Shown piece after piece: positions 1 to 50,799 of a DNA stretch of 64,000 nt. A program made the position numbers and the translations under genes. The notes beneath the pieces are model-generated. The model had not been told where the DNA came from and made no database searches. It saw only the letters and a list, made by a program, of their open reading frames with translations. This DNA comes from a virus. The DNA lies in the IMG/VR virus record IMGVR_UViG_3300002835_000050, positions 32,001 to 96,000 of that record. One strand, written 5' to 3'. How positions within the stretch are numbered: the stretch's first letter is position 1; the number at the start of each line of letters is the position of its first letter.

Positions 1-3000
1 TTTTTTGCTGCTACAGCTAATGCTTCTAAAAATGTATTAAAAGCTACTAAAGGATTAGATGTTGCAGAAGATGGTTACAAAGCTGTAAATTCAACTTTGA
101 ATGCAATTGATAATGTATCACAAGCAAGAACTTTTTGGCAAAATGCTAATAAGCTTGGTACTTCTGCATTTAGTCCTGTTGGAAGCACAATAAAAGGTTT
201 TCAAGCTGCCAAAGCTGCAGATAACTTAAATAACTTAGGTAAAGCATTTAAAACATTTGGAGGTTTCTATAGAGATGTTCAAAGAATTAATATGGCTTTA
301 TCTGAAGCTAGGCTTGAAGGCGGCATGGTTAAAAATGAAGTATATGATAAATTATATAATCAATACTATACTAAGAATAACCGTCCTCCAAGTGATGCTG
401 AACAATATGAAATGATTAAACAATCTGAGAAAGCTTCACTTAATACAGTACTTTGGAATACAGCATTAATTTATGGAAGTAATGCAATTACATTCCCTAA
501 TATAATGGGATCTAAAGGAGGTATTAGAAGTTTTATGAAGAACAGTCTTCAAGAATTTGCTACTGTTAAAGGTGGTAAGTTTGGAGATTTAGGAAAGATT
601 GTATATGACAAGGGTCTTAAAAAAGTTGTTTTTGAAAAAAATAATCTTAAGAACTTAGCAAAAAGTTGGTTAAAACAACCAATTTACAAATCTACTATGG
701 GAACTATAGGATACTTTAAAGCTAACTTTGCTGAAGGTATTCAAGAAAACTTACAAGAAGTTATCTCAGGTGCTAATGAAAGATACTATGTAGATAGTTT
801 TAAAAGTCCTGCATTAAGATCACATAATTATTCTAAAGCTGTTGCTAAATATAATGAAGCATCTCAAACTGCTTATTTTGGTGATGAGCTTGGTAAACAA
901 TTTACAGCTACGGGTTTTGAAACATTTGCTTCTGGTTTTGCTATGGGTGCATTAGCAACTCCTGTGAATGCTGTGTTTAATAATTTAAGTGTTGGTTATA
1001 ATAGAATTTTTGATAATAAAGCATATCAAGAGATTAAAGATAAAAAAGAAAAGATTGTAAATTCTTTAGCAGAACAACTTAATTCAATTGATGTTAATGA
1101 GTTTTTAAATGCTAGACCTTTTAATTATGCTACACAAGATGTTGTTGCTAGCATAAAACAATACGGGGATAAAAAACAAGCTAATGATGCTCACTTAGAT
1201 GCATTCATGAGTCAAATGGAAACAATGATTCAGACGGGCACAGTTGATGTCTTTAAAGATAGACTAATGGATTTAACTCAGTTATCTCCTGAAGAATTTG
1301 AAGAAGCTATCCCAACAGTACCTAAAGGTGAAGGAGCTGCTTATCAAAATAAAATACCTGACATCATTAAGAAAGCTAAAAAAATAGAAGAAAGATACAA
1401 GTACTATAATGAGAAGTTTCCTAATCCGGTAACTTATAATGAGATGCCTCCTAAAGATTCACCAGAATATGAGGATGCAGCTATATTACATAATGCTTGG
1501 AATAAAGGTATAGAGAATGCTATATATTTTAATGAAGCATTTGAAGATACTATGAATAGAAAGAAATCTATTATGGAAACATATCTTTCACAAGCTCCAT
1601 TAAAAGGCATGTCTCAAAGAGATTCTGAAGTTATATTTGACATTAAGAAACTTAGAAATGAACAGACTATTCTTAAAGATGAAATTTCTATTTTAAAAGA
1701 ATTAAATGATCCTGCATCACAATCTGAACTGCAGTTAAAAGAAAGAAAACTTGAAGCTTTAACTAAGTTAGGAGATAAAACAGCTACCTTAAGTAATTTC
1801 TTTAATAGATATGAAAGAGCAGAAGAAGTTAGAAAACAACTTCAAATTGAAAAAGGTGGAGAACCAGTTACAGATGAGGAAGTTGAAAAAACTTTAGATG
1901 AAGTATTTGGAGAGTATTCAGAAGAAAATAAAATTAAAACTTTTTCAGAACATGAAGCAGCATATAAAGATTATTTAAAAGCTCTTGCTAATGTAAATGG
2001 AGAATATTTATTTGATCAAAATATAGATGAGACTTATGAATTACTAGGACATCATTTTAAATTAGATTCAGAGTCTAGAAACTTAATGAAGTATGTAAAC
2101 TTATTACATGATCCTAATGGGTTTATAGAAAGTGTTCAGAGAAACCGTGTATGGATGAAAGATCTTTATAAAAGAAGAAGTGACATTTATAAACAAATGG
2201 TTGAAGAACAATTTAATTTAGTTATTGATAATACTTTATTAAATCATTTAGCTGATAGAGGTATTTATATTAGTCTTGATGATTTCCAAGATTGGAGATT
2301 AACAGGAACACCTCCTTCTGAGTTTTTTGATAATGCTAGAAAAATGGTTATTCCAGAAGGTACAGAGTTATATGATGAGTACTATAAGGAATTTGAAAAA
2401 GCTGCTTCATTAAAAAGTCAAGATTCTAGTCTTGTACCAGAATCATTAAATGAAGAACTTAAAAAAGATTTAGAGCAAGCAGATTTAGATATGGAAGCTG
2501 AATTAGATTCTATACCTAAAAAAGAAGTTAAGAATGTAATTAAAAATCTTAAACCTGATAGCGGTAAAACTTTAAGCTTAACTAAAATTAATACTGAACT
2601 TAATCCAAATGAATATGCCGAAGCTGAATATGGTGGAGACAATCCATTTGTTATTTTTAAGGATGAAGATGGTAATTTAAGATTAGAGAACATTGAGGGT
2701 GAGATTATAAAAGATACATCTAAAGTAGCAATTAACTTTAGTGAAGTAACTATCTATACTTTAGTTGAAAGAGCTGATCCAGAATTAGCTAAACCAGTTG
2801 TAGAAAAGTATGAAGCCTATAAAAATAAAATTAGAGATGAGTACGCTACTAAGATAGATAATCTTACTAAAGCTGAGGAAGCTCCAATTAATGATTTTGT
2901 ACCTATTGTTTCAGAAGTAAGCAGTGTTTTTAAATATCCTGCTTTATACAATACTCTATATACTAGCTTTACTGATAAAGTAATTAGTAAATTAGATCCT

Positions 3001-4815
3001 GCAGATTTAGATTCATTAACTGAAGAACAAGAATTAAACTTATTTAATAAATTCTTACAAACAGATAAAGAAGCTAAAACTGAAATAGAAAACTTTAATA
3101 AAAAACAAGTTACAGAAACTGAAGTAAAAGCTTCTCCTGAAAGATCTGATTTTGAATATATTTATCAAGGTAAGAAAAAAAACACAGCAGACTTAAAAAC
3201 AATAGCTGATTTAAGAAAAGCACAAAGAAGATTTAAGGCTTTAGTTGATGATATTACCAGTATGGAAAATCCAAACACTGAGGATATTACAAATAAAAGT
3301 AAATACAGTGTTATTGTTAAAGAATTTGATAAATTAATTCAAGCTAGATCTAAACAAAATTTAACTCCTGAATTAAGAACTGCTTTAGATAAAATAAACA
3401 AACTTAAAGAAGCACAAAGTGAAATACAAGTAGCTGATGCGGGTATGCTTATTGATGATGAAGAATATCAAAATGTTGAAACTGCATTAGGTCTTAAGAA
3501 AAATAAGGAGCCTTATAAGGTTTATATTGATGCTCAAATTAAAAACTTATTTGAGGGAATTACTCCACCAGTATTTGATACTAATGCTATATCTCAAGAA
3601 GCTTTTGATAACTTATTTGGTCCAAAAGGATACATCACTTCTATAAAGAATAGAGTAGATAATGGAGAATTATCTGTTATTGCTCAGGATCTTGCAGTAT
3701 ATGATTCAAATACTAAATTAGCAACTAATATTGATTTGTTATTAGCTGATACTCAAGGTAACTTACTTATTGTAAATACAATAAATGATTCAAAAAGTAA
3801 TTGGGATGTATTTACTAAAAAGGATAATCCAAATTCTAAGTTAAAAGATGTTAAGTTACTAGCAGTAGCTAAGGCTAATCTTTTAAATAATATGATTGGT
3901 GTAGATGCTAAAACATTAGTATTACCAATTGAGATGAGTGTAAGTACAGCTAATGATAAAATCATGATAGCTAATAAACCTACCTCACCTTCATTAACTG
4001 CTGTTGATGCTCTTATTACATTAGATAAAAAAGATGTCCAAGATCAGGTGAATAGTATTATTCCAATAGCTAAAAAAGAGACAGTTGAAACAAAAGTTGA
4101 AACTGAAAACATTAGCGTAGTTCCTGCTGATGCTGAATCAAGTGATGATACTCAATCTCCAGCTGTTGAGGCAGGAGAGCAAGAAAGAGAAACTAGATTT
4201 ATAGATGACAGTGTAAGATATGGAGCAAAAGAGTTTAAAGAAAGTTTAGCTAAAGCTGATATTACCACCTTTAATGCTGTTATGGCAGAGCTTAATCTTA
4301 AAATTCAAGAAGGTGTTGTAGATGTAAATGATCTTGAGACAATGTCAGAATTAGCAAAAGAAAGATTAGAACAATTAAAACAACCACAAAATGTAAAAAT
4401 TGTACCTGAATCTTTAACTGCAGATAAACAATTTGTTGCAAAAAGCATTATCTTTACAGAGCCCGGTAATCAAAAAAGTGAAATATTTGCTGAAGAAGAT
4501 GATACAGTAGTTATTAACTCTGTTAATACTAAAAATAAAACTGTATCTGTTTCAGCATTAGGTAGTTCAAAACAAATGACTATTGGTTTTAATGATATAA
4601 ATAAACTCTTTACATTAAAAGATTCAATAATGGATGCTACAGAAACACAAGATATGAGCCTATCTACAGAAGATAAAATTAAAATTAATGAGTCAATTGA
4701 CTTAGCTGATGGGTTTATAACAAATCCTGATAAACTTGGAAAAGTGGAAGGTGAGTCTTCTAGTAAATCACTAGAAGAATTAGATAATGAATTATTGAAT
4801 GACATAGATTGTTAA
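1..4815 (+). CDS. Giant virion/ejection (cargo) protein, 5'-truncated by the window; contains a degenerate PD-(D/E)xK-like segment
   Basis: Frame is open from base 1 (FFAATANASK...), so the real start lies upstream; helical and charged; directly upstream of the virion RNAP as in crAss-like phages; single Cys at the C-terminus. Confidence 0.7.
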   Translation, partial: FFAATANASKNVLKATKGLDVAEDGYKAVNSTLNAIDNVSQARTFWQNANKLGTSAFSPVGSTIKGFQAAKAADNLNNLGKAFKTFGGFYRDVQRINMALSEARLEGGMVKNEVYDKLYNQYYTKNNRPPSDAEQYEMIKQSEKASLNTVLWNTALIYGSNAITFPNIMGSKGGIRSFMKNSLQEFATVKGGKFGDLGKIVYDKGLKKVVFEKNNLKNLAKSWLKQPIYKSTMGTIGYFKANFAEGIQENLQEVISGANERYYVDSFKSPALRSHNYSKAVAKYNEASQTAYFGDELGKQFTATGFETFASGFAMGALATPVNAVFNNLSVGYNRIFDNKAYQEIKDKKEKIVNSLAEQLNSIDVNEFLNARPFNYATQDVVASIKQYGDKKQANDAHLDAFMSQMETMIQTGTVDVFKDRLMDLTQLSPEEFEEAIPTVPKGEGAAYQNKIPDIIKKAKKIEERYKYYNEKFPNPVTYNEMPPKDSPEYEDAAILHNAWNKGIENAIYFNEAFEDTMNRKKSIMETYLSQAPLKGMSQRDSEVIFDIKKLRNEQTILKDEISILKELNDPASQSELQLKERKLEALTKLGDKTATLSNFFNRYERAEEVRKQLQIEKGGEPVTDEEVEKTLDEVFGEYSEENKIKTFSEHEAAYKDYLKALANVNGEYLFDQNIDETYELLGHHFKLDSESRNLMKYVNLLHDPNGFIESVQRNRVWMKDLYKRRSDIYKQMVEEQFNLVIDNTLLNHLADRGIYISLDDFQDWRLTGTPPSEFFDNARKMVIPEGTELYDEYYKEFEKAASLKSQDSSLVPESLNEELKKDLEQADLDMEAELDSIPKKEVKNVIKNLKPDSGKTLSLTKINTELNPNEYAEAEYGGDNPFVIFKDEDGNLRLENIEGEIIKDTSKVAINFSEVTIYTLVERADPELAKPVVEKYEAYKNKIRDEYATKIDNLTKAEEAPINDFVPIVSEVSSVFKYPALYNTLYTSFTDKVISKLDPADLDSLTEEQELNLFNKFLQTDKEAKTEIENFNKKQVTETEVKASPERSDFEYIYQGKKKNTADLKTIADLRKAQRRFKALVDDITSMENPNTEDITNKSKYSVIVKEFDKLIQARSKQNLTPELRTALDKINKLKEAQSEIQVADAGMLIDDEEYQNVETALGLKKNKEPYKVYIDAQIKNLFEGITPPVFDTNAISQEAFDNLFGPKGYITSIKNRVDNGELSVIAQDLAVYDSNTKLATNIDLLLADTQGNLLIVNTINDSKSNWDVFTKKDNPNSKLKDVKLLAVAKANLLNNMIGVDAKTLVLPIEMSVSTANDKIMIANKPTSPSLTAVDALITLDKKDVQDQVNSIIPIAKKETVETKVETENISVVPADAESSDDTQSPAVEAGEQERETRFIDDSVRYGAKEFKESLAKADITTFNAVMAELNLKIQEGVVDVNDLETMSELAKERLEQLKQPQNVKIVPESLTADKQFVAKSIIFTEPGNQKSEIFAEEDDTVVINSVNTKNKTVSVSALGSSKQMTIGFNDINKLFTLKDSIMDATETQDMSLSTEDKIKINESIDLADGFITNPDKLGKVEGESSSKSLEELDNELLNDIDC

Positions 4816-4819
4816 TATT

Positions 4820-7800
4820 ATGAAAATAACTTGTGCTTTATCTCAATCTCAAATTGAGAAATTATATGCTAATGTTTATGGTTACATGCTTAATAAAGGT
4901 AATGATTTTGAGCCTAAACAATACATGATAGATTTATTTGATAAGCTTGCTAAAAAGAAAGATGTAGAAACTGCAGCTAAATTTTTGCAACAAGTACCAT
5001 CTTTAATTGGTACAGCATCATTTAGACCAGGTCTTGAACAGTTTGAGATTAGTACTGATATACTTAAACCATTAATAAATCAATTTAAAAGAGATGAGAA
5101 TGGTTTGGTTAATGTAGTTAAATATTTTAATCCAGTATTGGATCCTGAAGTAAAAAAAGAATTAGTTGAGAAAAAAGCTAATGATGCTTTTGATATTATT
5201 GAAGTAGATACAAATAGAATTATTACACAAGATTTTGATTTTAAACCTTATTCTGCATTATCTACAACAATGCAACAGTTTATTACTCAAAATCCAAAAG
5301 ATAAGACAAATGCAAGTGAAACTTTAGATCCTTCAAGAAAAGTTATTTATAATACACTAGATGCAATAAGATCTGTTGTTAATGATAATACAGCTTTTAA
5401 AGAAGTAGTTTACCAAGGTAAAGTATTAAAACTAAAACCTGTTAGACTAAATGAAATCAATCCTGTATTATTAGATAAAACAACTAATGCTCTATTAAAT
5501 AAAGCTGGTGCAATTAATGCTGGTAAAAAAGGTGTAGAATCTGTTACTCCTATAAATGAAATCTTCTTAATGGTTCTTTCAGATAGTAAAGGAGAATTAT
5601 TATACTTTACAGAAGATGGTAACATTACAACTCAGGATAAAGGTGGTAGATTAGTTTATCAGTTTTTAAGAGATGCTAGAAAAGATGGAAATAATATTAT
5701 GATAACTGATATGTATGGTTATCAAAATTCTATTTTAGATCCTGCTACTATTGCAAATAAAGCTGGAGTACCTGTTGAAGTTATTGAAGAGCAACAAAAT
5801 AAAGAATTTAAAGAACTTTATGACTATAGACAAAAGTTAATCAATAATGAAAAAGTTGATTTACTAGATATAGTAAGTGTAAGTAATGGTATTGCAGAAT
5901 ATGCTCCAGATAAATTAAATTTATCTAACATCTCTACAATCTTAAATGATAATGATGCAGCTATAAGAAGTATTGATACAGTTAACTCACCGCGTTCTGG
6001 ATTTATTGAAGGACAAGCTGTTATAACTATTAAAGGTGTTGAATATGCTGTTGATAGACCTAACATATCTTTAGACCTTATAAATAAAATTGCAACTGTT
6101 CTTACAAATAAAGACATTACAAATAAAAAGAAATATAGATTTGTTAGTACATTCTTAGCAGATAAAGCTTCTCCTTCAACAAGAAAACATAATATTACTT
6201 ATTTACCAAATAGTGATGTTTTACTATTTGAATATTCTGAAACTACTTTTGATGAAGGATATAGTAAAATGAAATCTGTAAACTTAGATAGTCCTACAGC
6301 AAAAAATGATATTGTAAAAGCTTTACAGTTTGCTTCTGGTAAAAACGGAAAATACTATACAGCTAAAATGACTATCAGTAATGAAGCACTAGATAAAGGT
6401 TATCAAGATTATAATTTGAATACAAATACATTAGATGATAATTATTCAAACTACATTGATCTATTAAAAACATTAGATAATACTAATATTAGTGTAGATC
6501 TTAATCCTGCTGGAAGAACTTTTAATAGTTACTTAAGATTTGCTTTACCAAATGAGTTTACAGAACAATTAGCAAATGCTCAAAAAAATACTGATGAGAT
6601 TGTTAAGGATGACTTATTTGAAACACTTTCTGAACCTGAAGATGAAAAACCTGTTTTTGGAGTTAAAGCAACTAGAGAAAAATTAATCAATGCTTTAGAA
6701 AAAAATGAAACAGTTAGTGGTACTATTTCTTTTGTAACAGGAAGTAAATGGTTATTAACAACACCAGAGGGTCAAGTAGTTGAGTTTTTTAATAAAGAAA
6801 ACAATATAACTAATGAAGATGTAATTAGTACAGCAACTCTTAATTTAATTCCAGAGATTACATTAGATAATAAACCTTTTACTAATGTAATTGAAGTTAA
6901 AGTTGGTAATAAATTTATTGGTTATGTAAGAGAAACTGAAGATTTTTCTAAACCAGTAAAACAAAAATCAATTGAGGAAATTGAAGCTGAGATAAATCAA
7001 GTTATTGATGGTAAAGGTGAAGCTACACCAGAAGATGATGGAGCAGCAAGTGTGTTCTTTCTTAGAAAAGGAAGTTTACCTGCAGATGTAACAGAGAAAC
7101 AAATCAAGGATGCTAAGAAATGGTGGACTAATTCTCCATTAAATAAACACATTGGTTTCAAAGAGGTAGCAAATATTGTTAACTCAGATGCTTATGCAAG
7201 ATTTACTAAATATGGAGCTGTCCTTAATGGAAACTTAGGTATTATAGAACTTGCTGATAAAGGTTCTATGGTAGATGTGTATCATGAAGCATGGCACGGG
7301 TTTTCCCAATTATACTTAAGTAAAGCTGAGAAAAAAGCTTTGTATAAAGAGGTACAAAAAAAGATGGGTTCTAAAGCTGACTTCTTTGATATAGAAGAAA
7401 ACTTAGCTGAAGCTTTCCGTGAATATGTAAGAACAGGGAAAGCTTTGAAAGGTGCTCCTAAGACAAACAGCATTTTCAAAAAGATCCTTAACTTCTTAAG
7501 AGAGTTGTTTGGAAAAGGTAGTGTTACTGATGTTACTGATATTAAAAGAGTTAATGAGTTATTTAATGAGCTATACTTAGGTACTGAACTTAATAAGTAC
7601 ACTCCTTCTATTGCTAATGTTATGTTTAATACATTAAATAGAAGCTTGGGTATAATCAAACCAGGTACTGCAGATGAACAAGTTCTTAATAGACAAGACT
7701 CTAATAAGTTAAAAGATAGTATGGATTCTATCATATCTGACATTGTAGATAATGAAGCTAAAAGAAGTAATAAGAAATCTGGTACTTTAAGTATATTATT

Positions 7801-10800
7801 AGACTCAAGAAACAGAGAACCTTTATACATACTAATTAAACAACAACTTAACAACAAATTAGAATTATCTAAAACACAATTACAGGATACTCCAAATAAT
7901 TTAGAAAATGCTCTTAAGAGAGAGATACTAGAAAATAGAATTAGAATTCTACAAACTGGTTTAGATAATTATGGAGACACTAAAGAAGGTTTAATTGGAT
8001 ACCATGTTGAAAATAGTACATATGACTTAATGAAACAAAAGTATACAGTTCTTGAGTTAGATGAAGAAGGTAATTTATTTGATCCTGCTAATATTAAAAA
8101 TACAGAAAGATACGGTGATAAAGAAGAAGGTCAAAAATCTTTGATTGAATTAGCAGGTAAAGAAACATTATACATTCTTAAAAGTTTACATAAAGGAAAA
8201 ATCAATAAGGATACAAACTTAATTGAGTTTACATATGATGATTTAGGTTTTAAACAGTTAGCAGATTTTAGATCTACTTGGAATACTGTAGTTAGAACTA
8301 TTGGTGGTGTACAAGATCCACAAGAAATGTATGATAGATTAGCTAATGAAGGTGAAACAGATTCTCAATTAAGACAATTAGTACAAACTAAATTAGCTAA
8401 TCCTAAATTAGTTACAGAAGATATTGCTAAGAATAATCAATATGAATTTAAAGCTACTACTTCTATTTGGCAAGATTTTAGTAAATCTAAGATTCCTTAT
8501 ATTCAGTTAACTATCCGCAAAACAGAAACTGGAGAAAAAGAAGTATATGATTATAATGGTAATCCAATACCAAATAAAAGCTATAAAACTTATGATTATT
8601 CAAGTGCTGTTACTGATGCTTCAATTGAAGCATATAATATCATTAGAAAATTTGAAGATAAATTTAAATCTAATCTGGATAATCCATATGTAGAAAGACT
8701 TGGTATTGACAATATACCTACATTAAACATTCAACAAGTTGTTAAAGACTTTGGTGTTAATGGTAAACTTAATACTGAAAAATCATTTGCTTTTGCAAGA
8801 GCTCTTGGATTTGCATTAGATGATCTTAGTATTATTAAAGGTGTGCTTAATAAAAAAGATAATAAAACTATAGAACAGTTTGGTTTATCATATATATTTG
8901 ATGTAGTTAAAAAGCTTAGTGATAAGGAAAACTTAGAAAATGTAAGCAGTGCAACTAAAAAAGCTATCTTAAACTTTAGAACTAATCCAATAAATACATT
9001 AATGAATGATATCCCAGCAGGGGTAATTGGAAACAGTAAAGTAAATCAAAAAAATAAAGTACTAGAAATAGCAAAATTACAAAGTAGATATGGTTTAGAT
9101 ACTTCTAACAACATGGTATTAAATGCTGAAAGAAATAGAGTATCTGAATTTATTGAGAATAACTCTATATCTAAACAAGTGTCTGCTTTAAATAATGCTT
9201 CAAAGCTTTCTGATTTATGGACATCTGATAAGTATCAACATATGGCTTATTTAGATCCTAGAATTAATGCTTATACAAAAAGATTAGGTATAATCAGATC
9301 ATTATATGATATGTCAAGTGCAGAGCAATTAAAAAGATCTAATAAATCTTTAACATTGTTTATGGACTCAGGAACTCAAATTGCTGATGAAGATGGTGGT
9401 TTAAATACTGCTAATTTAGATATTGCTTCTAAAAGACTTCAAGAAATGAATACTATGTTAAAAAGCGGTGTTCAAGAATTCTTAAGACATGCATCTAAAT
9501 CATCTGCATTTGGTGTTAAGATAGATAGTGGTATTATTGGTTCTCCAGATAAATCAGGATTTGATAATTATCTTTGGGTTGACAGTGATATGTTTGTTGA
9601 TGGTACTGCTTATGATTATGCATTCTTAACTCACTTTTTACCTTACATTGAAGGGGAAGCAGAAAGAATTTATAAATTTAGAAAGAACAAGACTGAGTAT
9701 TCTAAATATGCAGGATACAATAGAAAAGTTGAAGGAGGTTTTATGGCTGGAGAAATCTTTACTGCATTTGATGATATTATTGAAGATGATACAAAAAAAT
9801 TAATTTATAAAGCAATTGATGCTGCTATAGCAAACAATGAATCATTTGACTTAAGAACATACATAAGAACTCAAAATAATCCTTTAGCAACTACATTAAG
9901 AAACCAGGTAAGAAGTTATTTTGATAATCAAAGTAAAGTCAATTATAATAATTTACAAGAGTTAAAGTTTATTGATCCGGAGTTGATTGATAAAATGAAA
10001 AGTCTTAATACTCCAGAAGATCAGATTGAGAAAAAACTTGTAGAAGTATATACTTATAATTCATGGATTCAAAACTTTGAAACAGCTGTTTTATTTTATG
10101 GAGATATAGCACAATATAATCATGCTAAACAAGAACTACATAAAAGAAATACAGGTTCAACTTCTGGAGGACGCGCTTTTAGAACAGATGTTGCTGCAAG
10201 AAATTTTGTAAATTCTTTCTTAAGTGAAACTTCTTATGCAAAAAAATATAACAAGCCTACTATAAATTATAATGGTACATACAATACAGCAATTGTACAA
10301 GACATAAAAAGAACTTCAGAGTATTTAGGTGAAATTGAAAAAGGATTAACAGATGAGTATACTAAAAGATATGCTACTTCTAAAGATCCTAATAAAGAAG
10401 CTGAGATAAAACGTAGAGTTGCAATTGAGATTGCTAAGTATGTAGATATGGAAGAAGGAGATGGTCAAGGTTATATTAGTTTTGATGCATATAGAAATTT
10501 AAAATATCTAGAAAATTCATGGTCAAATGATCAAGAGATCTTATTCCAAAAAATTAAAAATGGAGAAGAAGTAAAAGCATCTGACATAAAAGAATTTTTC
10601 CCAGTATATAAATTACAAAACTATGGACCTTTAGCAAATAAGGAAATAGGTTTACCTATTACAGCTATGCATAAGTTTGCTTTATTTCCATTAATCCCTA
10701 ATGTTATTGCAGGATCAGATCTTGAGTCTTTACATTTGCAAATGATTGATAAAAACATTCAATATGTAACATTCCAAACGGGTTCTAAAGTAGGTAGTGT

Positions 10801-13800
10801 AACTTCTGCAGTTAATAAAGATGGTGATCCTGTAGCTGATGAAATATATGTTGGTGATCAGAAAAAATTAAAAGCTGATATAACTTTTACTCCTAATACA
10901 ATTTACTTAGAGTATCTTAAAAATGTAACTAATGTACCTAATGCATATAAAAATAAGACTGTATTCTCAACTCAGTTAAGAAAACTTATCTTAAAAGATA
11001 TGTATAAGGATAAAAAAATCATTAATGATGCTAATGAATCTGCAGTTAAAAGATATGAAAAAGCTGTAGACTCTTATAGCCAGTTATTGAAAATGGAGTT
11101 ACTACAAGAAGTTGATTATGAATATGATATAGAAACTGGTACTTATAAAGGAAACATCAGTAAGTTTTTAGAAGTAGTAGAAAGAGAATTAGGTAGAAGA
11201 AATATACCTGAGCACTTAATTGAATTTATAGGTTTAAATAGAGATACTACAATTAAAACAGATTTATCTTTACACTTAGTAGCAGATCAAATTGAAGCTA
11301 TCATTACAGGTTTAATTGAAAAAAGATTAATCAAACAAAAAGTTAAAGGTGAGGCTCTAGTACAAGTTGCTAGTTCAATGTCAAATGGGCTTTGGGATAC
11401 TAAACTTAAAAAAGGTACTAAAGAAGAGATTATGAAGTACTTAGGTACTAATAACTTACCTTTTTATAATAAAGATGCAAACACAGGTAAAACAAATGCA
11501 ATGAAAGTTGCTATTGCTTTACAAGGTGATTTCTCTAACTTGCTTAAACTTAATGCTTTAGATGGTCAACCGATTGCTACAAGAGCAAGATTAAATGATA
11601 TGATTAAAGAAGATGCATGGTTAGATATAGCTGATAACAGAAAGTCAGTTACTTTAGCTGCTGTACGTATTCCAGTACAAGGATTAAACTCTATGGAATT
11701 TATGGAAGTTTATGAATTCTTAGATCCATCTGCTGGAAATATTATCATTCCTCCAACTGAGATTGTTGCTAAATCAGGAGCTGATTTTGACGTTGATAAA
11801 TTGACTACATTCATGCCTGCAATTGATTCTTATGGAAATTTTGTAAAAACAGGATTAAGTAATGATGAATTGTCAATGAAGTTAGATGGTGTTGAAAATG
11901 AAAATGTAGGTAAAGGCTTAATTAAAAATCAAAAAGCTGCATTAGAAAATGAACTTATCATGGCTATTTCTGGTATCTTAGAATTATCTGATAATTATGC
12001 ATCACTGGTAAGACCAAATGATACATACTTAATGAAAGATGATATTGCTGATGAATTAGAAAAGTATGTTACTAGTTATGATAGATTCAGTAACTTCAAT
12101 AGAAAAACTCCAGGTTTCAGTCCAACAAAAACTCTTGAGGTAGGTTATAACTTACATAACCATGAGGTAAACATGATTGGTAAAAGAGTATTAGGTATGT
12201 TAGCAATAGAAAATTCATTACATCCAGTTATGAATTCAATTGGTTTATCATTACCTAAAACATATAAAAACTTAGAGTTTGACCAAGATTTAAACAGAAA
12301 TAAAGAAGGGACTACTGATTTTGAAATGAGATTATTTTTACCTCATAACAAAACAGAAGATGGTAGAATTTCTTTATCAGGTGTAGATACTGTTGATGGA
12401 CTTGACAACATAGGTGAAATGTTTTCACAAATGATGAATGGTGCTGTGGATGTTGAAAAAAATCCATGGATATTCTTTATACAAGGGAATTATGAAATGA
12501 TTCCAATGATTACTTTTTTATTAAAAGCCGGAGTCCCAAGAAAACAAGCTATATATTTTGTTTCTAATCCAATTGTAAGAGAGTATGCTAAAGAACAACG
12601 TAAACTTAAAAGTGCTTATGCTAAAATTACAGGAACTGTAGAAGAAAATTTTGGTAAAAGTTTTGTTAAATATACAGCTGCAACAAATGCTCTTACTAAA
12701 TTTGGAGTTTCTCAAGCAGGTAAAAAAATAACTAATAAAACATATTTTAAATCTGTTAATGATGCTGTAGCTAAACAAGGAGTATTAAATGATGAAGGTT
12801 TATTTGATGAGACTTCAATGAGAATGCTTATAGAAAATCCCGAAGCTCCTGAATATAAAGATCAAGCAATAGCAATGTTCTTACACTTTTTAGAATTAGA
12901 AAAATCTACAAGAGGTTACAATGCATTAAAGTTTGTAGCTAATCCAGATACTAAGACATCTAAAACTTTACAAGAGATTATAAGAAGAAATGTAGCTTTT
13001 GATGAAGCTGCTGCATTATCTACTTTAGAGAAAGGTTCTGTAAATGAATTATTAAACTCTGTATTAGGTTCTTTCTATAATAATAAAATCATAGGAGATT
13101 TAGTAGCCCCGGTGTTTAAATTAAGAAACAATGATGTAGTTACTGATTATATCTTAGATAGACTTAAAAATAATTCTTCTAGTATAACAAAAGCATTTGG
13201 TACAGATCAAGATGGTACAAGAAAGTTTATTACTTCTTTTAAAAATGCTATTCCTAATTATATCTTCCAAAATTACATGTCTAATTTTATAGATGAGTCA
13301 GGAGAAATAACTAGTATGCCTAAATACTATAAAGGAATTGAAGTTATTAATAAAGCTGGTGCTAAAGAGGGTGCTGAAATAATTGATAATAAACTTTATA
13401 TTGATAAGGCAAGATTAGAAAAAGAATATGCTGAAGAGTTATATGCTGCTTCTAATACAAATCCTGGTAACTATAATAGTGAAGGCTTAAGAGGTTTTGG
13501 TAATACTATAAACTTATTCAATACAGAATCAGCTTATTTTAAATATGTATTTGAAAGAGCTATTCAAAAAGATTTATACAGTCCAGAATCAGTTAAAGAA
13601 GATAAAGACTATTTAAGATTTAATGAGTTTCTTAAAGATGATAAACAAGCTTACTTAGCTTATATTAATCAAAGAGCACTTGTGTATGCATTTAATAGAA
13701 AGATTATTACAGGAATGGATAATGATTCTTATACTAACATGCTATTAAACATGATAAATGATTATCCTATTTTAGCAAGTAAATATAATATCATATCTCA

Positions 13801-15631
13801 ATTTACTAAACCTAATGTTAAAGAAAGTGTACTTTCATTAAATGATGTTAGTTCATTAAAAGATGGAGATACTGCTGAAATCTATTATCAAAATCTAAAA
13901 GACTTGGCGGATGAGACTGTTAAGAAAGTTTCTGATCCTATAGAAAATAGAAAGATAAGCAAGATGTTTGAAATGTTGCCATTAATTGCAATATATCAAC
14001 ATGGTATTGGTTATAGTAAAAATGGATTTAATGAAGCATTACCTTATGATAATTTCATAGAAGTTATGCAAACAGCTTCTGAAATTTTTATGAATAAGCA
14101 ATTAAATGAAGCAACATTAAATACTATATTTGATAAACTACTTGCTCAGAACTTTAAAACTTTTAAAGATTATACATCATCTCCGGAGGCATACAATAAA
14201 CCTACTACACCAACACCAGTAGATATTATGTCTCAAGAAGAAGCAGCGGCTATGTTAGAAGGAAAAGGTCTTAAAGTTACTGAAGAAGTTTCTACTACTC
14301 AACCTTCTACTAGTGTTAAAGAAGGTGTGTCAGTATTATTTGAATCTAACCCAGAATTAGCTAATGTTGGAACACCTCAGCAATACTCACAATATCTTGA
14401 TGGTATATTTCCGGATAGTAAAGTTAAAGATATTGTTTATCACTGGTCTGCAGGTTCACAAATATCTGAACAATTTGGAGATGACTTAGGTAGGGTAAAA
14501 GGTATTTGGATAAGTAAAGATCCTAATCAATGGAAAGACATTATTAAAAATAAAAGTAAAAGGCTAGGTATAAATCAAATTAAAAAACATGTTTTAATAA
14601 TAAATGCAAATAATATTTGGGTTGACTCAACCCTATCTAGTCCTGAAGGAAGTAATTTTCCTAAAGGTTATGATACCATAGCAGCATATGAAGAAGCTGA
14701 TTTAGCTTATTCTGGAGATTTAAAACCAGAATTTAAAAATATAGAAGGTTTTGAAGCAGTTATAAAATTAAAAAATCAAACTTATGAATTAGGTACTAAA
14801 CAAGATATAGAAGGATTTAAAAACTTTGTAGCTAATTCTATTCAACCAAGTCAAATTAGTACACAAGGTATTGTTAATAGACCAGATGTAAACTTGAGAG
14901 AAAAATACTTTAAAAACTCAGAAGTTAAAAAATTGTCTGAAGTATTAGGAGCTATTAGTAAATCTAATCATCCTCTAAGTACATTAGCTAAACACTTAAA
15001 TCAGTTTTCTAATATAAATAATGCTGACATAGCTTTAGAAGATGTTGATAATTTTGAAGTAACTGATGGTTTTACTAGTAATGCATACTATGATATCTAT
15101 TCCAATAGAGTTAGAATAGCAGAGTTTGCTAATGTAAACAATGGTAGTGCAGAAACATTATTGTTACATGAAATCTTACATGCATTATCATATAAAGCTT
15201 TAAGAAAAGGTGGTAACTATAATAAAGATTTCCAAAAGTTATATGAACATAGTATTCAACAATTAGGAGCTTTTGATGTATCTGCAAAAACAGGACCTTA
15301 TGCTAATTATACAATTGATGAATTTTTTGTAGCTTTGTTTACAGATGCTAAGTTCATTAAACAACTTTCAGAACTAGCACCTATTGATGTTAAAAAGTAT
15401 AGCAACTTATTACAAGAGATTGTTGACCACATCTTAAATTTACTTAAAATAAATAAAGGAGATTCAGTTTATGATCAAGCTTTTGCAGTAGCTACTAACA
15501 TACTTCAAGAAGAAAGTGACTATGTAAACGCTATGAATATGGCAGCACAAGAGCAAGATAATATAAATTTTGAAATAAATGCTCCTGAAGGTTTGCCTGG
15601 AATACCAAGAACATCAACAGATTGTCAATAA
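4820..15631 (+). CDS. Virion-packaged DNA-dependent RNA polymerase (crAss-like DPBB type) with accessory zincin and ART-like domains
   Basis: 3603 aa; RIPVQG followed by catalytic GADFDVDK (DFDVD at 11783-11797); DGQGY motif; HEAWH (7283-7297) and HEILH (15167-15181) zincin motifs. Confidence 0.9.
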   Translation: MKITCALSQSQIEKLYANVYGYMLNKGNDFEPKQYMIDLFDKLAKKKDVETAAKFLQQVPSLIGTASFRPGLEQFEISTDILKPLINQFKRDENGLVNVVKYFNPVLDPEVKKELVEKKANDAFDIIEVDTNRIITQDFDFKPYSALSTTMQQFITQNPKDKTNASETLDPSRKVIYNTLDAIRSVVNDNTAFKEVVYQGKVLKLKPVRLNEINPVLLDKTTNALLNKAGAINAGKKGVESVTPINEIFLMVLSDSKGELLYFTEDGNITTQDKGGRLVYQFLRDARKDGNNIMITDMYGYQNSILDPATIANKAGVPVEVIEEQQNKEFKELYDYRQKLINNEKVDLLDIVSVSNGIAEYAPDKLNLSNISTILNDNDAAIRSIDTVNSPRSGFIEGQAVITIKGVEYAVDRPNISLDLINKIATVLTNKDITNKKKYRFVSTFLADKASPSTRKHNITYLPNSDVLLFEYSETTFDEGYSKMKSVNLDSPTAKNDIVKALQFASGKNGKYYTAKMTISNEALDKGYQDYNLNTNTLDDNYSNYIDLLKTLDNTNISVDLNPAGRTFNSYLRFALPNEFTEQLANAQKNTDEIVKDDLFETLSEPEDEKPVFGVKATREKLINALEKNETVSGTISFVTGSKWLLTTPEGQVVEFFNKENNITNEDVISTATLNLIPEITLDNKPFTNVIEVKVGNKFIGYVRETEDFSKPVKQKSIEEIEAEINQVIDGKGEATPEDDGAASVFFLRKGSLPADVTEKQIKDAKKWWTNSPLNKHIGFKEVANIVNSDAYARFTKYGAVLNGNLGIIELADKGSMVDVYHEAWHGFSQLYLSKAEKKALYKEVQKKMGSKADFFDIEENLAEAFREYVRTGKALKGAPKTNSIFKKILNFLRELFGKGSVTDVTDIKRVNELFNELYLGTELNKYTPSIANVMFNTLNRSLGIIKPGTADEQVLNRQDSNKLKDSMDSIISDIVDNEAKRSNKKSGTLSILLDSRNREPLYILIKQQLNNKLELSKTQLQDTPNNLENALKREILENRIRILQTGLDNYGDTKEGLIGYHVENSTYDLMKQKYTVLELDEEGNLFDPANIKNTERYGDKEEGQKSLIELAGKETLYILKSLHKGKINKDTNLIEFTYDDLGFKQLADFRSTWNTVVRTIGGVQDPQEMYDRLANEGETDSQLRQLVQTKLANPKLVTEDIAKNNQYEFKATTSIWQDFSKSKIPYIQLTIRKTETGEKEVYDYNGNPIPNKSYKTYDYSSAVTDASIEAYNIIRKFEDKFKSNLDNPYVERLGIDNIPTLNIQQVVKDFGVNGKLNTEKSFAFARALGFALDDLSIIKGVLNKKDNKTIEQFGLSYIFDVVKKLSDKENLENVSSATKKAILNFRTNPINTLMNDIPAGVIGNSKVNQKNKVLEIAKLQSRYGLDTSNNMVLNAERNRVSEFIENNSISKQVSALNNASKLSDLWTSDKYQHMAYLDPRINAYTKRLGIIRSLYDMSSAEQLKRSNKSLTLFMDSGTQIADEDGGLNTANLDIASKRLQEMNTMLKSGVQEFLRHASKSSAFGVKIDSGIIGSPDKSGFDNYLWVDSDMFVDGTAYDYAFLTHFLPYIEGEAERIYKFRKNKTEYSKYAGYNRKVEGGFMAGEIFTAFDDIIEDDTKKLIYKAIDAAIANNESFDLRTYIRTQNNPLATTLRNQVRSYFDNQSKVNYNNLQELKFIDPELIDKMKSLNTPEDQIEKKLVEVYTYNSWIQNFETAVLFYGDIAQYNHAKQELHKRNTGSTSGGRAFRTDVAARNFVNSFLSETSYAKKYNKPTINYNGTYNTAIVQDIKRTSEYLGEIEKGLTDEYTKRYATSKDPNKEAEIKRRVAIEIAKYVDMEEGDGQGYISFDAYRNLKYLENSWSNDQEILFQKIKNGEEVKASDIKEFFPVYKLQNYGPLANKEIGLPITAMHKFALFPLIPNVIAGSDLESLHLQMIDKNIQYVTFQTGSKVGSVTSAVNKDGDPVADEIYVGDQKKLKADITFTPNTIYLEYLKNVTNVPNAYKNKTVFSTQLRKLILKDMYKDKKIINDANESAVKRYEKAVDSYSQLLKMELLQEVDYEYDIETGTYKGNISKFLEVVERELGRRNIPEHLIEFIGLNRDTTIKTDLSLHLVADQIEAIITGLIEKRLIKQKVKGEALVQVASSMSNGLWDTKLKKGTKEEIMKYLGTNNLPFYNKDANTGKTNAMKVAIALQGDFSNLLKLNALDGQPIATRARLNDMIKEDAWLDIADNRKSVTLAAVRIPVQGLNSMEFMEVYEFLDPSAGNIIIPPTEIVAKSGADFDVDKLTTFMPAIDSYGNFVKTGLSNDELSMKLDGVENENVGKGLIKNQKAALENELIMAISGILELSDNYASLVRPNDTYLMKDDIADELEKYVTSYDRFSNFNRKTPGFSPTKTLEVGYNLHNHEVNMIGKRVLGMLAIENSLHPVMNSIGLSLPKTYKNLEFDQDLNRNKEGTTDFEMRLFLPHNKTEDGRISLSGVDTVDGLDNIGEMFSQMMNGAVDVEKNPWIFFIQGNYEMIPMITFLLKAGVPRKQAIYFVSNPIVREYAKEQRKLKSAYAKITGTVEENFGKSFVKYTAATNALTKFGVSQAGKKITNKTYFKSVNDAVAKQGVLNDEGLFDETSMRMLIENPEAPEYKDQAIAMFLHFLELEKSTRGYNALKFVANPDTKTSKTLQEIIRRNVAFDEAAALSTLEKGSVNELLNSVLGSFYNNKIIGDLVAPVFKLRNNDVVTDYILDRLKNNSSSITKAFGTDQDGTRKFITSFKNAIPNYIFQNYMSNFIDESGEITSMPKYYKGIEVINKAGAKEGAEIIDNKLYIDKARLEKEYAEELYAASNTNPGNYNSEGLRGFGNTINLFNTESAYFKYVFERAIQKDLYSPESVKEDKDYLRFNEFLKDDKQAYLAYINQRALVYAFNRKIITGMDNDSYTNMLLNMINDYPILASKYNIISQFTKPNVKESVLSLNDVSSLKDGDTAEIYYQNLKDLADETVKKVSDPIENRKISKMFEMLPLIAIYQHGIGYSKNGFNEALPYDNFIEVMQTASEIFMNKQLNEATLNTIFDKLLAQNFKTFKDYTSSPEAYNKPTTPTPVDIMSQEEAAAMLEGKGLKVTEEVSTTQPSTSVKEGVSVLFESNPELANVGTPQQYSQYLDGIFPDSKVKDIVYHWSAGSQISEQFGDDLGRVKGIWISKDPNQWKDIIKNKSKRLGINQIKKHVLIINANNIWVDSTLSSPEGSNFPKGYDTIAAYEEADLAYSGDLKPEFKNIEGFEAVIKLKNQTYELGTKQDIEGFKNFVANSIQPSQISTQGIVNRPDVNLREKYFKNSEVKKLSEVLGAISKSNHPLSTLAKHLNQFSNINNADIALEDVDNFEVTDGFTSNAYYDIYSNRVRIAEFANVNNGSAETLLLHEILHALSYKALRKGGNYNKDFQKLYEHSIQQLGAFDVSAKTGPYANYTIDEFFVALFTDAKFIKQLSELAPIDVKKYSNLLQEIVDHILNLLKINKGDSVYDQAFAVATNILQEESDYVNAMNMAAQEQDNINFEINAPEGLPGIPRTSTDCQ

Positions 15632-15667
15632 AAATTAGTATATTTAAGTATAATTATAATTAGTATT

Positions 15668-18600
15668 ATGCCTTGTGTAAATAAAATAACTCAGTTCATT
15701 AACGAACTTATATTTAATGAAGCTAGCCCAGCAATGAATATGTCATTAGCTAATGCTAAAACTCTCATTAAAAATGTTAATAGGAAGTATGGATATGAAG
15801 CAGCTAGACTTATCATTGGTGATACTCTAGATGTTACAACATATGCTAGTAAAGATTTGATTGATAAGTTTTATGCTAATGAGCTTGCTTTAGAAATGGC
15901 TGAAGCAAGTAAGACTGAAAATGAAGCTAGATCTGCTGAAATAAATAATATTGATTCAGAAGAAGACTTTATTAAAAGACAGTTTGAACAAGCTAGAGAT
16001 TATGAAATTGCTTCAAAACTAGGAGATAAATATCAAAAAGCATTTGGTATTGACTATAGTATAGTTACACCTGCAGAAGCAGCTTTAATACTAGAGCTTA
16101 CACCTACACCATATGATCCATCTGTATCTGCATTCTTTTATGCTAATAGAGTTTATTTTATTGAAGGTAATTTTAAGTCTAATACAGTAGTTCATGAGTT
16201 TGCTCACCCATTAATTAAAGCAATTGCTTTTCAAAATCCTAAGTTATTTGATAGTTTATATGCTAGATTAACAGGTACTGTGACAGGAAGAGAAGCATTG
16301 AATAGAGTTAATGAAAGGTATCCTGAATTAGAAGAAGGTTCTGATAGATACAGAGAAGAAGCTTTAGTGACTGCAATTGAACTAGATGCTGAAATAAAAT
16401 TATCAGGTATCAAAACTTCAGATACTGCTTTTGATAAGTTTATGGAAAATCTTTTGTTTGCAATTAAAAAAGTTATTCAAGCTCTTACAAAGAAAGTAAC
16501 CTTAAAAAATTTAAGTAGTCAGACAACAAGAGATCAGTTGGTAGACATGATGCTTAATGAAGACTTTGTTATTCAAGATATAAATTATCAAACAAATATG
16601 TTTGCTGAGTTTAGTAAAGATACAGATCAGTTCTTAAAAGAACTTAAAGCTGTTGAACCTAAACAAATCATTAATATCATTAACAAGTTTCATACTGAAA
16701 TGTCTTTCCAGTTAAATGAGTTAAGAAATTCTCCTAAGAAATTTAAAGAAAGCTTAGGTAAAGATGCTGCAGCAAATATTAGATTGATCAGAGATTATGT
16801 TAAAGGATATAAAACTGTAGATGAAGATATAACAGATGATGAATTAAAAGATTTGCTTGATTCATTAGTAGTAGATGAGGCAGATTTAAATGTAAGATCT
16901 TTAGCATTCATTAATAGTTTATCTGAGTTAATGTTGTTTGCAAGAAAAATTGAAAAAATATTTAATGATATCAAAGCATCCAAAGAATACTTAACAGAAG
17001 AAGGTAATCAAAAAATCCAATACTTTAAACAGTATATGGAAAGAGAGTCTAAGTTCTTAAAAGATGTATTGAATGAGTTAGATATGGACTCTTCTAATAA
17101 ATTAAGTAAAGAGATTCTATCTATTAAAGAACTTATGGATAGAAATATAGATAAAGCAAAAGTATTATCTTTTAATTATGTTAAAGACTTTATTCTTGCT
17201 AATGGTATTTCTATGCAAGAAAATGTAAAGAAAGATTTATCTGATAAAATTGATCTTATACTTAAAGCAGATGGGTTTACTGAAGATGAGATAAATGTAT
17301 TTAAGGATGATCTATTTCAAAAATTAGATGTAGATAACATTAGAGCTATTTCTGAATCTGATTTTAATTTACCAAGAAAACCAACCAAGTTTGCTAAAAA
17401 TATAATCAATGAGATTAAACAATACAATAACAATAAAATTACAGAGCAAACAGTAGATGAATATCTAAGAGGGCATGTAAGAGATCTTAGTTTAGCAGGT
17501 GCTACATTTACACCAACAGGAAATATTAATGACTTGTTTGGTACATTTGTTAAAGCAATGAAAAATAAAATTTCAGATGCTGAGGTTCTTAGTCAACAAG
17601 AACAAATGAAGTTTGTAGAGAACTTAAAACCTTTATTAACTGCTGTTAACTGGAATCCTAATAATACAAATCAACTTGCAGACATGTTATTGTTTGAAGA
17701 TGAGAAAGGTATTATTGATGAACAAGGTAATGTTACTTCATATCAAGCTTATAGTTATATTGATAAATTTAAGAATTGGGAATTTGCTCAAGCTCAATTA
17801 ATGGGTAATCTCAAAAAAGCTAAACTGAAAGGTGATAAAGCAGAAATTAAAGCTGCTATGCAAGCAATGAGAGATTTTGAAAGAGATTATAAAATAAGAA
17901 GATTTACTGATGAAGTATATGAAGTACAGGATATATGGTTACAATCTAATACAGTATATGATCCTACAACTAAGAAAAATATTACCATTTCTGCAGATAT
18001 ATCTTTAGAAGCATTTAATGAAAGAAAAGCTGCACTAGATGATCTTGCTACTTATAGTAATTCTTCTGAGTTTACTTCATTAGATGACTTACTTGAGTTT
18101 ACACCTTCAGCAGAGGCAAAAGTAAAGTATAATAACTTATATAATTTGTATGATGCAGATGGTAATTATAAACAAGGAGTTGAATTACAAAAAGTATTAG
18201 TTAGAAGATTTTATAGACAAGAGTCAAGAAAGTTTTATGAATCTAATCCTGATACAAAGAAGTTTCAAAATGATTTTGATCACTTTGTAAACAGTGAGTT
18301 AGCAAGTTTAGGTATTACTAAAGATGATAATCCTGAAAGATATGAAGCTGAGATTAAAAAATTCTTAGCTAAGAATACAAGAGTGGCTTATACTGATGAG
18401 TACTATCAAGAAAAAACTGAGACTTTAGCAGAAATTAATGCTATTAATGAAAAAGCTAAAGGTGCAGAAATATCTAAAAAACTAGCTAGCTTATATGAGC
18501 AAAGATACAGTATTACAAATAGAGTAACTGACAAAGACGGTGAACCTAATGGTGCTGAACTTGGTAATGAATCTCTTAATAGATTAAAAGATATTGAAGA

Positions 18601-26787: not shown

Positions 26788-27244
26788 TTTTTAAATATTT
26801 AATTGCATTTTCTAAACTATGGATGTTGTCTTTAAAATTACCCAAAGCAAGATTGCAGTTATTACATAACAGTCCTCTTACTTTTCCTGTAGTATGACAA
26901 TGATCAACTGATAATAACTTATCAAGGTCTGTGTCAAGAGTTAAACAAATAGCACACCTATGACCTTGTTCTTCTAACATTTGTAAATAAATATCATGAG
27001 TAATATCAATACCATAGGTTTTATTCCATGAGTATACTTTTCTTCTCAAGATATGTTTATGTTTATTTTTTACATAAGCCTTATTAGCAATTGCCTTACA
27101 TTTATCAGGATTTTTTGCATAATAATCAAGCATATGCTTATTAGAACAGGTTTTACAATGTGAATGTAAACCATCTTTTCTACTTCTATCAGTCCTAAAA
27201 CACTCATTAGGCTGAGCAATTTTGCATTTTGTACATGTTTTCAT
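26780..27244 (-). CDS. Endonuclease VII-type HNH (free-standing homing-endonuclease-like)
   Basis: CTKC...CKTC...CAIC...VDHCHTTGKVRGLLCNNCNLALG; start MKTC at 27244 preferred. Confidence 0.85.
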   Translation of the reverse strand: MKTCTKCKIAQPNECFRTDRSRKDGLHSHCKTCSNKHMLDYYAKNPDKCKAIANKAYVKNKHKHILRRKVYSWNKTYGIDITHDIYLQMLEEQGHRCAICLTLDTDLDKLLSVDHCHTTGKVRGLLCNNCNLALGNFKDNIHSLENAIKYLKNE

Positions 27245-50291: not shown

Positions 50292-50564
50292 TTAGACAGC
50301 TAGTTCTTCTTCAATTAACTCTTCTTCCTCTACTGCATTTTCTAATGATTGATCTATTAAGATACCAAATCTATCAGCATCATAATACTCATAAGGAAAA
50401 GAATTTTTAGATAAAGATACTTCTTTAAGAAGATATCCAAACTTACCTGCTTGGATACCCATTTTTACTGTTTCAGTAACAGTATAGATAGTGCCTTCCT
50501 TAATCCACTCATTTTGAGGAATCTTAACTGGCTTTTTAGTATCATTAATGCATATGACTTTCAT
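50292..50564 (-). CDS. Hypothetical protein
   Basis: MKVICIND...YDADRF phage pattern. Confidence 0.6.
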   Translation of the reverse strand: MKVICINDTKKPVKIPQNEWIKEGTIYTVTETVKMGIQAGKFGYLLKEVSLSKNSFPYEYYDADRFGILIDQSLENAVEEEELIEEELAV

Positions 50565-50799
50565 GTTCTTCTACAGTAACTTTAAGTCCCAAAGATACTA
50601 AATCTTCACTTATAGTTTGCATATCATACCATGAACCATTTTTTATATGACATTTACCGTTACTATGTGTAATTAATGCACACTGCTCAGCTTGAATAGG
50701 ATCATGATTACATAATTTAATCAAGCAAGCCATAACATAAGGAAAATCATTTATGTCATCATTGTGCATTATAAGTTTGTGTGTATCAGATATATCCAT
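50545..50799 (-). CDS. clpS: ClpS-like N-degron adaptor
   Basis: KLIMHNDDINDFPYVMACL...AEQCALITHSNGKC. Confidence 0.8.
   Translation of the reverse strand: MDISDTHKLIMHNDDINDFPYVMACLIKLCNHDPIQAEQCALITHSNGKCHIKNGSWYDMQTISEDLVSLGLKVTVEEHESHMH

Follow-up and report, generated by a model that had tools for sequence, protein, structure and literature searches.

Why would giant viral proteins that have almost entirely dispensed with cysteine retain it precisely at the ends that face one another in gene order? The question is raised by three consecutive genes at the left of the 64,000-nucleotide stretch analysed here (the window; bases 32001–96000 of the 114,550-bp virus record IMGVR_UViG_3300002835_000050), whose products we call P1, P2 and P3. 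The earlier note on this DNA, made from its letters alone, had read the cysteines as intermolecular disulfides joining the C-terminus of each protein to the N-terminus of the next, an arrangement that would enforce stoichiometric packaging and ordered ejection of phage cargo.

P1, the putative first member of such a chain, occupies positions 1–4815 on the + strand, where residues 256–1859 are encoded. Upstream of the window the gene extends for another 765 nt, and the full-length protein of 1859 amino acids (aa) begins MADINN and ends ...DIDC, its lone cysteine codon (4810–4812) directly preceding the stop codon (4813–4815). A 4-nt spacer (4816–4819, +) separates this stop from the start of P2, which is read in a different frame. 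P2 (4820–15631, +; 3603 aa), the putative middle member, begins MKITC (Cys5 codon 4832–4834) and ends ...TDCQ (Cys3602 codon 15623–15625). An AT-rich spacer of 36 nt (15632–15667, +) leads to P3 (15668–21478, +; 1936 aa), the putative last member, which begins MPC (Cys3 codon 15674–15676).

Together the three proteins contain four cysteines in 7,398 residues – the last residue of P1 (C1859), residues 5 and 3602 of P2, and residue 3 of P3. The window holds 7,143 of these residues and all four cysteines, and the part of P1 upstream of it adds none. Cysteine makes up 1.63% of residues in the genome's other 117 open reading frames (ORFs), a frequency at which ~120 would be expected in P1–P3 (Poisson P for four or fewer = 4e-46), and the probability of all four landing in the 20 junction-facing positions is 5e-11. 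Among the other ORFs, a cysteine occurs within the first 10 residues in 11 of 117 and within the last 10 in 10 of 117. Several statements of the earlier note were thus reproduced exactly: the count of four in about 7100 aa and the position of each, the D-C shared by the C-terminal sequences DIDC (P1) and TDCQ (P2), and the P3 C-terminus (...NLRS) that lacks a cysteine.

On the strength of a catalytic motif and homology, both found in its sequence, P2 is predicted to be a crAss-type virion RNA polymerase (RNAP) of the phi14:2 gp66 type. Its tblastn matches were to Crassvirales RNAP genes only (cr108_1, E 5e-24; phi14:2, E 3e-14; crAss001, E 5e-10) and fell within residues ~1400–2330. The catalytic motif DFDVD (residues 2322–2326; 11783–11797) is invariant in 19 homologues, as is a zincin motif, HEAWH, at residues 822–826 (7283–7297). 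C5 and C3602 likewise do not vary across 19 aligned homologues. A phmmer search of P2 against PDB chains gave no match, nor did PHROGs and Pfam searches with P1 and P2. An alignment of P1 from its own clade matched crAss001 gp47 in hhalign (97.1% probability, E 6.6e-11); a PD-(D/E)XK-like region of P1 lies around window 3502–4065, and C1859 is invariant in 21 aligned homologues. A P3 profile matched phi14:2 gp076 (hhalign, 96.5% probability, E 8.5e-10), and P3 carries an HExxH motif at residues 176–180 (16193–16207) and a LysM domain at residues 1621–1663 (20528–20656).

The genome also encodes crAss-type TerL and portal proteins. Its TerL is only 25–27% identical to that of any GenBank phage, so the virus belongs to a distant, unclassified crAss-like lineage; blastn of the junction region against GenBank phages found no match. 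The phi14:2 and crAss001 orthologues of all three proteins are virion proteins by mass spectrometry (record annotation; PMC10172136) and their ejection is believed to take place in a partly unfolded state (PMC10172136). Judging from these orthologues, P1–P3 are most likely packaged and injected.

We then asked how widely the terminal cysteines are shared. Among P1 homologues, 117/120 have a cysteine in the last one to four residues and 0/120 have one at the N-terminus; a single internal cysteine was present in two. P2 homologues (3,000–4,300 aa, identity down to 42%) show the terminal pattern in about 105/120, typically with exactly two cysteines, at residue 5 and two to five residues from the end, and the entries that miss one are truncated. 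P3 homologues (identity down to 26%) carry a cysteine at residues 3–6 in 114/120 and at the C-terminus in 0/120. When the conserved part of P3 was searched exhaustively against 50%-identity cluster representatives, the full-length proteins gave the same picture, with an N-terminal cysteine in 123/128, a C-terminal one in 0/128, and a cysteine content of 0.016% among the representatives. A further 22 short matches lacked the N-terminal cysteine; we treated these as truncated gene calls because their first residues align to interior positions of full-length homologues. Mapped over Crassvirales homologues in this way, the terminal cysteines are conserved, and P1–P3 of this phage contain no further internal ones.

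To relate the cysteines to gene boundaries, we called ORFs in 79 related IMG/VR loci, of which 74 are distinct, and checked each boundary between neighbouring genes for a cysteine within 10 residues of each facing end. In the distinct loci, 133 boundaries had a cysteine on both sides and 93 on neither; only two had one on a single side, one of them a start-codon miscall. Internal cysteines numbered 46 in 507,484 residues (0.009%). At linked boundaries the C-terminal cysteine ended the protein in 61 cases and fell among its last four residues in 125, the N-terminal cysteine lay at residues 3–6 in 132 of 133, and the spacing between the genes ranged from overlaps to gaps of 39 nt. The residues around the terminal cysteines are highly variable, and the cysteine alone is constant. 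The cargo protein directly upstream of P1 never carries a cysteine. Selection on the terminal cysteines is strongly supported by these sequence comparisons. Other routes into the family yielded less: locus searches with the N-terminal or C-terminal 700 aa of P2 as single queries retrieved no relatives, a scan with the cr1_1 fused protein described below retrieved near-identical contigs only, scans with the homologues P0405 and P0392 gave no matches, and a cross-family RNAP alignment was dropped as a scan seed, its sequences being too divergent.

The same arrangement is found in cultured and classified crassviruses. In phi14:2, the corresponding block gp078–gp077 (the virion RNAP)–gp076 (GenBank numbering; g067–g066–g065 in Drobysheva et al.) consists of homologous proteins with the same terminal cysteines: gp078 has a single cysteine as its last residue, gp077 has Cys3 and Cys2179 of 2180 residues, and gp076 has Cys3 only. 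In crAss001, the homologous virion proteins gp47, gp50 (RNAP) and gp49 likewise carry a single cysteine at position -3 from the end, Cys5, Cys1334 and Cys2404 (at -9), and Cys5 only, respectively. These blocks differ from the one studied here in that our phage is distant from both by TerL, its P2 is 1,200–1,400 residues longer, and the break between P1 and P2 is placed elsewhere relative to the HExxH domain. The terminal pattern recurs in DAC15, cr128_1 and cr85_1, in the last of which only the P2–P3 boundary was readable. In crAss001, DAC15 and cr128_1, P1 is encoded on the strand opposite to P2–P3 and the pattern is still present. It is therefore a feature of the proteins and no by-product of DNA or translation at a gene junction.

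Natural gene fusions remove the junction cysteines. P1 and P2 are fused in the Suoliviridae cr1_1, cr50_1, cr118_1 and cr114_1 and in the Steigviridae member cr108_1; none has a cysteine at the former junction, and all retain the C-terminal cysteine of the P2 part together with Cys3–5 of P3. The fused protein of cr1_1, for example, has cysteines only at residues 4026 and 4548 of 4551. In the Intestiviridae cr8_1, cr271_1 and cr107_1 it is P2 and P3 that are fused. The pair is missing at the fused junction, the P1 C-terminal cysteine (-2) and Cys3–5 of the fusion are kept, and the C-terminus of the fusion is free of cysteine. The fused polyproteins of Suoliviridae and Intestiviridae, noted by Drobysheva et al. 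(10.1101/2020.03.07.982082), unite the same domains in unchanged order within a single covalent chain. They differ in that a peptide bond takes the place of the disulfide proposed here, the junction cysteines are absent, and release of the parts would need a protease rather than reduction.

Two of these genomes showed further peculiarities. The cr108_1 RNAP gene (MT774385, L008:16763–17054) contains a 290-nt gap right after the catalytic-motif region, with no cysteine at either end, which looks like an intron or other interruption and no true break in the protein. Under table 11 the cargo genes of cr114_1 (NC_055897, L103) are broken by dozens of in-frame stops, which means that stop codons are recoded; its fused P1–P2 nevertheless ends ...ICNL and its P3 has a single cysteine, Cys5, in keeping with the terminal rule.

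Gene fissions add cysteines. In the related loci L022, L027, L028, L029, L040, L057, L068 and L073, P2 is followed by one or two additional small genes, whose products (242–762 aa) contain exactly two cysteines, one at residue 3 and one at or within three residues of the end. The protein after each of them again has a cysteine at residues 3–6, giving predicted chains of four and five members. The break between P1 and P2 has also shifted. The spacing from HExxH to DFDxD is ~1450–1500 aa both in P2 here and in fused proteins, and the P1–P2 break lies ~820 aa before HExxH in this clade and 180–255 aa after it in crAss001 and cr8_1. Because this offset differs, the breaks are non-homologous between lineages, and yet each is flanked by a cysteine pair. 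As far as sequence can tell, fusions, fissions and the shifted break favour pairing between neighbours, and they argue against cyclisation of P2, a metal knot of four cysteines, or tags for other partners.

A solved structure provides a precedent. In the cyanopodophage A4 (Anabaena phage A-4L), cryo-electron microscopy of the pre-ejectosome resolved a disulfide between gp27 Cys1715 and gp26 Cys5; the bond lies within the capsid, where the C-terminal helix docks into the protein that follows (PMC12002296). In the A-4L genome we found a single cysteine at -3 in gp27 (1717 aa), a single one, Cys5, in the next gene product gp26 (1114 aa), and no cysteine in gp29. The resemblance to P1–P3 is close: consecutive genes 5 nt apart, a giant upstream protein, facing terminal cysteines in otherwise cysteine-free proteins, and cysteine-poor neighbouring ejection proteins. 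It is an analogy with no shared family, as blastp and phmmer comparisons of A4 gp26 and gp27 with P1, P2 and P3 (E<=1) returned noise only. A4 also differs in having one link rather than a chain, no RNA polymerase, and five copies in an ordered ring, and its authors viewed the bond as a stabilising detail and did not generalise from it (PMC12002296).

Low cysteine content alone has another parallel in the ejection proteins of Schitoviridae (N4 gp50, DEV gp71–gp73), which are cysteine-free, a property rationalised by passage through the periplasm (PMC11445570). Both groups show strong suppression of cysteine in giant ejected proteins that include a virion RNAP. In Schitoviridae the suppression is total and extends to the termini, whereas here one cysteine is positively kept per facing end. 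A literature search found no paper describing terminal-cysteine linkage for crassviruses. The earlier note's statement that such linkage had not been described thus holds for crassviruses in the searchable papers, but one link of this kind had been published for A4 (PMC12002296). New here is the proposed extension of an A4-type link to multi-link chains that include the virion RNAP, with evidence from fission and fusion.

Taken with the analogy to A4, the sequence patterns make it likely that each C-terminal cysteine is disulfide-bonded to the N-terminal cysteine of the next protein, forming a linear, threadable and reducible head-to-tail chain. As far as sequence comparison reaches, the linkage put forward in the earlier note is strongly supported: the cysteines are selected, occur only at facing ends, pair in gene order, are lost on fusion and gained on fission. 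That the bond is a disulfide we infer from the solved A4 precedent with the same signature and from the many inter-subunit disulfides of the crAss001 tail (PMC10172136).

How might such a chain work? P1, P2 and P3 would be cargo carried in the capsid and pushed through the tail into the host. Cysteine has been purged from them, as in other ejected phage proteins, except for one near every end that faces the next protein. With N-terminal partner cysteines at residues 3–6, P1-S-S-P2-S-S-P3 would form one unbranched chain of ~7,400 residues, topologically equivalent to the single polyprotein that some crassviruses encode. As the links would sit at the extreme ends, each junction would be hardly thicker than a polypeptide, and a partly unfolded chain could thus thread its way through the narrow channel of portal and tail. 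During threading each protein would pull the next, and the reducing cytoplasm would then cut the chain into three free proteins. Assembly takes place in a reducing cell, so the bonds probably lock only after lysis and release, non-covalent docking of a C-terminal helix onto the next N-terminal domain probably coming first. The link may serve coupled or ordered ejection; we rate this above the stoichiometric packaging that the earlier note had also put forward, because packaging through disulfides is doubtful in a reducing cytoplasm.

In structure prediction, the complex of the C-terminus of P1 with the N-terminus of P2 reached an ipSAE score of 0.34, against 0.00 for the best control, which weakly supports an interaction. 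The ipSAE mark used was reached by 58 of 80 solved complexes and 2 of 110 mismatched pairs, and scores of 0.60 or under comprised only 7 of the 80 solved complexes and both passing mismatches. The runs agreed in at least 54% of contacts and the partner had a predicted local distance difference test score (pLDDT) of at least 56, with no contacts listed. AlphaFold modelled a 252-aa link protein with low confidence (pLDDT 63.5; predicted template modelling score 0.36); both cysteines appear to cap terminal helices, and the end-to-end distance was unreadable.

Several points count against the disulfide chain. Virions are put together in a reducing cytoplasm and gut phages inhabit an anoxic lumen, both of which cast doubt on the timing of bond formation and on bond formation itself. 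Support from the predicted complex is weak, and confidence in the fold of the small link protein is low. Internal cysteines are tolerated in some lineages, with 5–14 in Intestiviridae fused proteins and one in crAss001 gp50. Cargo cysteines go unmentioned in the crAss001 atlas, the phi14:2 RNAP preprint, a Crassvirales review and the 2026 N4 paper. In one locus (L089:2791–9998), P1 is divided between ORFs of 1613 aa and 789 aa that overlap by 4 nt, and the break carries no cysteine – the sole within-chain boundary without a pair, which may reflect a frameshift or sequencing error. Finally, where a chain has three or more members, its sequences by themselves do not prove that pairs form between neighbours rather than in other combinations.

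Other chemistries and other partners could in principle account for the cysteines. Facing termini might couple neighbours through a shared metal, with nearby Asp/Glu or the terminal carboxylate as further ligands, or through other thiol chemistry. Many C-termini are indeed D-C or E-C, the 8 residues before the C-terminal cysteine have a mean net charge of -0.83, and such a clasp could form in the reducing cytoplasm. But a single cysteine per terminus with unconserved flanks provides no constant ligand set, a labile metal bridge would be poor at passing on a pulling force, and the only solved case of the signature, A4, is a disulfide; we consider this explanation improbable. Somewhat less probable again is that each terminal cysteine bonds elsewhere – to another copy of the same protein as a homodimer or polymer, to a capsid, portal or tail protein, or to a host periplasmic thiol-disulfide enzyme during entry. 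The abundance of disulfides in crAss001 structural proteins speaks for such bonding, and sequence does not identify the partner. It leaves unexplained, however, why no P1 N-terminus (0/120) and no C-terminus of the last protein (0/120, 0/128) carries a cysteine and why boundaries are all-or-none (133 versus 2), and in two-protein systems the only two terminal cysteines face each other.

The terminal cysteines could also remain free, as redox sensors, as a terminal recognition tag or as the trace of a DNA or translation signal at gene junctions, and the fact that the bond has been shown in no crassvirus fits this idea. A junction signal is excluded by the opposite strands of P1 and P2 in crAss001, DAC15 and cr128_1 and by varying gaps and frames, and a tag or sensor predicts neither two-sided co-occurrence nor the behaviour on fission and fusion, which leaves free thiols very unlikely. 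Least likely of all is that middle proteins are circularised by an N-to-C intramolecular bond while the first protein of the chain pairs with the last. Middle members do always have one cysteine at each end. A cyclisation pair would, however, be expected to be kept or lost together, whereas P1–P2 fusions drop the N-terminal cysteine of P2 and keep the C-terminal one and P2–P3 fusions do the reverse; a closed loop would moreover hinder threading through the tail, and the A4 bond is intermolecular.

A number of more specific candidates were rejected. A lipoprotein box is ruled out, there being no signal peptide and no fixed cysteine position, and a CaaX-like box by cysteines lying anywhere between the last residue and 9 from the end. 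A split intein is ruled out, with no intein domains present and the cysteines 1–5 residues from the ends. Read-through or frameshifting into a polyprotein is incompatible with the differing frames and with the opposite strands of the crAss001 genes, and a four-cysteine metal knot with two-protein systems that hold only two cysteines.

Besides its terminal cysteines, the RNAP protein is variable in content. Past about residue 2840 of P2 (window ~13340–15500), homologues (P0003–P0119) contain inserted enzyme domains of differing kinds – PF08719 YbiA/NADAR-like, PF13532 2OG-Fe(II) oxygenase, PF18760 ART-PolyVal, PF25176 and PF13671 – and the insert-bearing proteins retain just two terminal cysteines. 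The RNAP protein thus also serves to carry swappable effector modules. One relative of 6381 aa (L016:7386–26531) has a second, diverged RNAP-like module at residues 5261–5904 that is 26% identical to P2 1873–2600. Its only cysteines are residue 5 and the last residue, and the next ORF begins MSC.

Elsewhere in the genome, outside the window, we observed two more boundaries with facing cysteines in the head/tail module (genome 1497–2955 and 2958–4365; L002:1497–4365). A 372-aa protein whose single cysteine is its last residue (...KKSC) precedes a protein with Cys6 (MPKDAC), and a 169-aa protein ending ...WNC precedes one beginning MKKCMKCG. These pairs may mark further head-to-tail disulfides among structural proteins; among the genome's 88 other boundaries, three with facing cysteines were observed versus ~1 expected by chance. 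Upstream of P1, genome 21266–31249 (L005) encodes four late proteins that are cysteine-free or cysteine-poor: 363 aa with a lysozyme-like domain and no cysteine, 1215 aa with its cysteines confined to a CxxC at 1122/1125, 726 aa with six cysteines, and 977 aa with none. They are probably further ejected cargo (C1/C2-like) outside the cysteine-linked chain. Ten CxxC-bearing ORFs of the window were checked for a thioredoxin-like domain and none was found. The leftward gene block of the window includes an endonuclease VII ORF (PF02945, E 3e-24; 26783–27244, -) and a ClpS-like adaptor ORF (PF02617, E 1.5e-13; 50548–50799, -).

Crassviruses are the most abundant phages of the human gut. By what means, and in which order, they package five huge cargo proteins and bring them into the host is still unsettled according to the crAss001 atlas (PMC10172136) and the 2026 N4 paper. 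With two to four disulfides holding it together, a chain would be a concrete and cheaply testable mechanism for coupled and ordered delivery as well as for release on arrival. It would also explain why the gene block consists of one, two, three, four or five genes across lineages: if the chain is real, genes can split and fuse freely because a cysteine pair restores the chain at each new break, and the reducing cytoplasm plays the part of the protease that releases the parts. We give roughly even chances to a broader proposition, that in injected phage proteins head-to-tail disulfides are a general, evolvable stand-in for peptide bonds, having arisen independently in A4 and perhaps in other podophages, with the RNAP here forming the middle link in a thread that exceeds 7,000 residues. 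The single bond of A4 would then be, as the parallels suggest, one instance of a wider principle, and the signature itself – a giant protein free of cysteine except at the ends facing its neighbours – could be used to spot ejected proteins and their order in uncultured phages.

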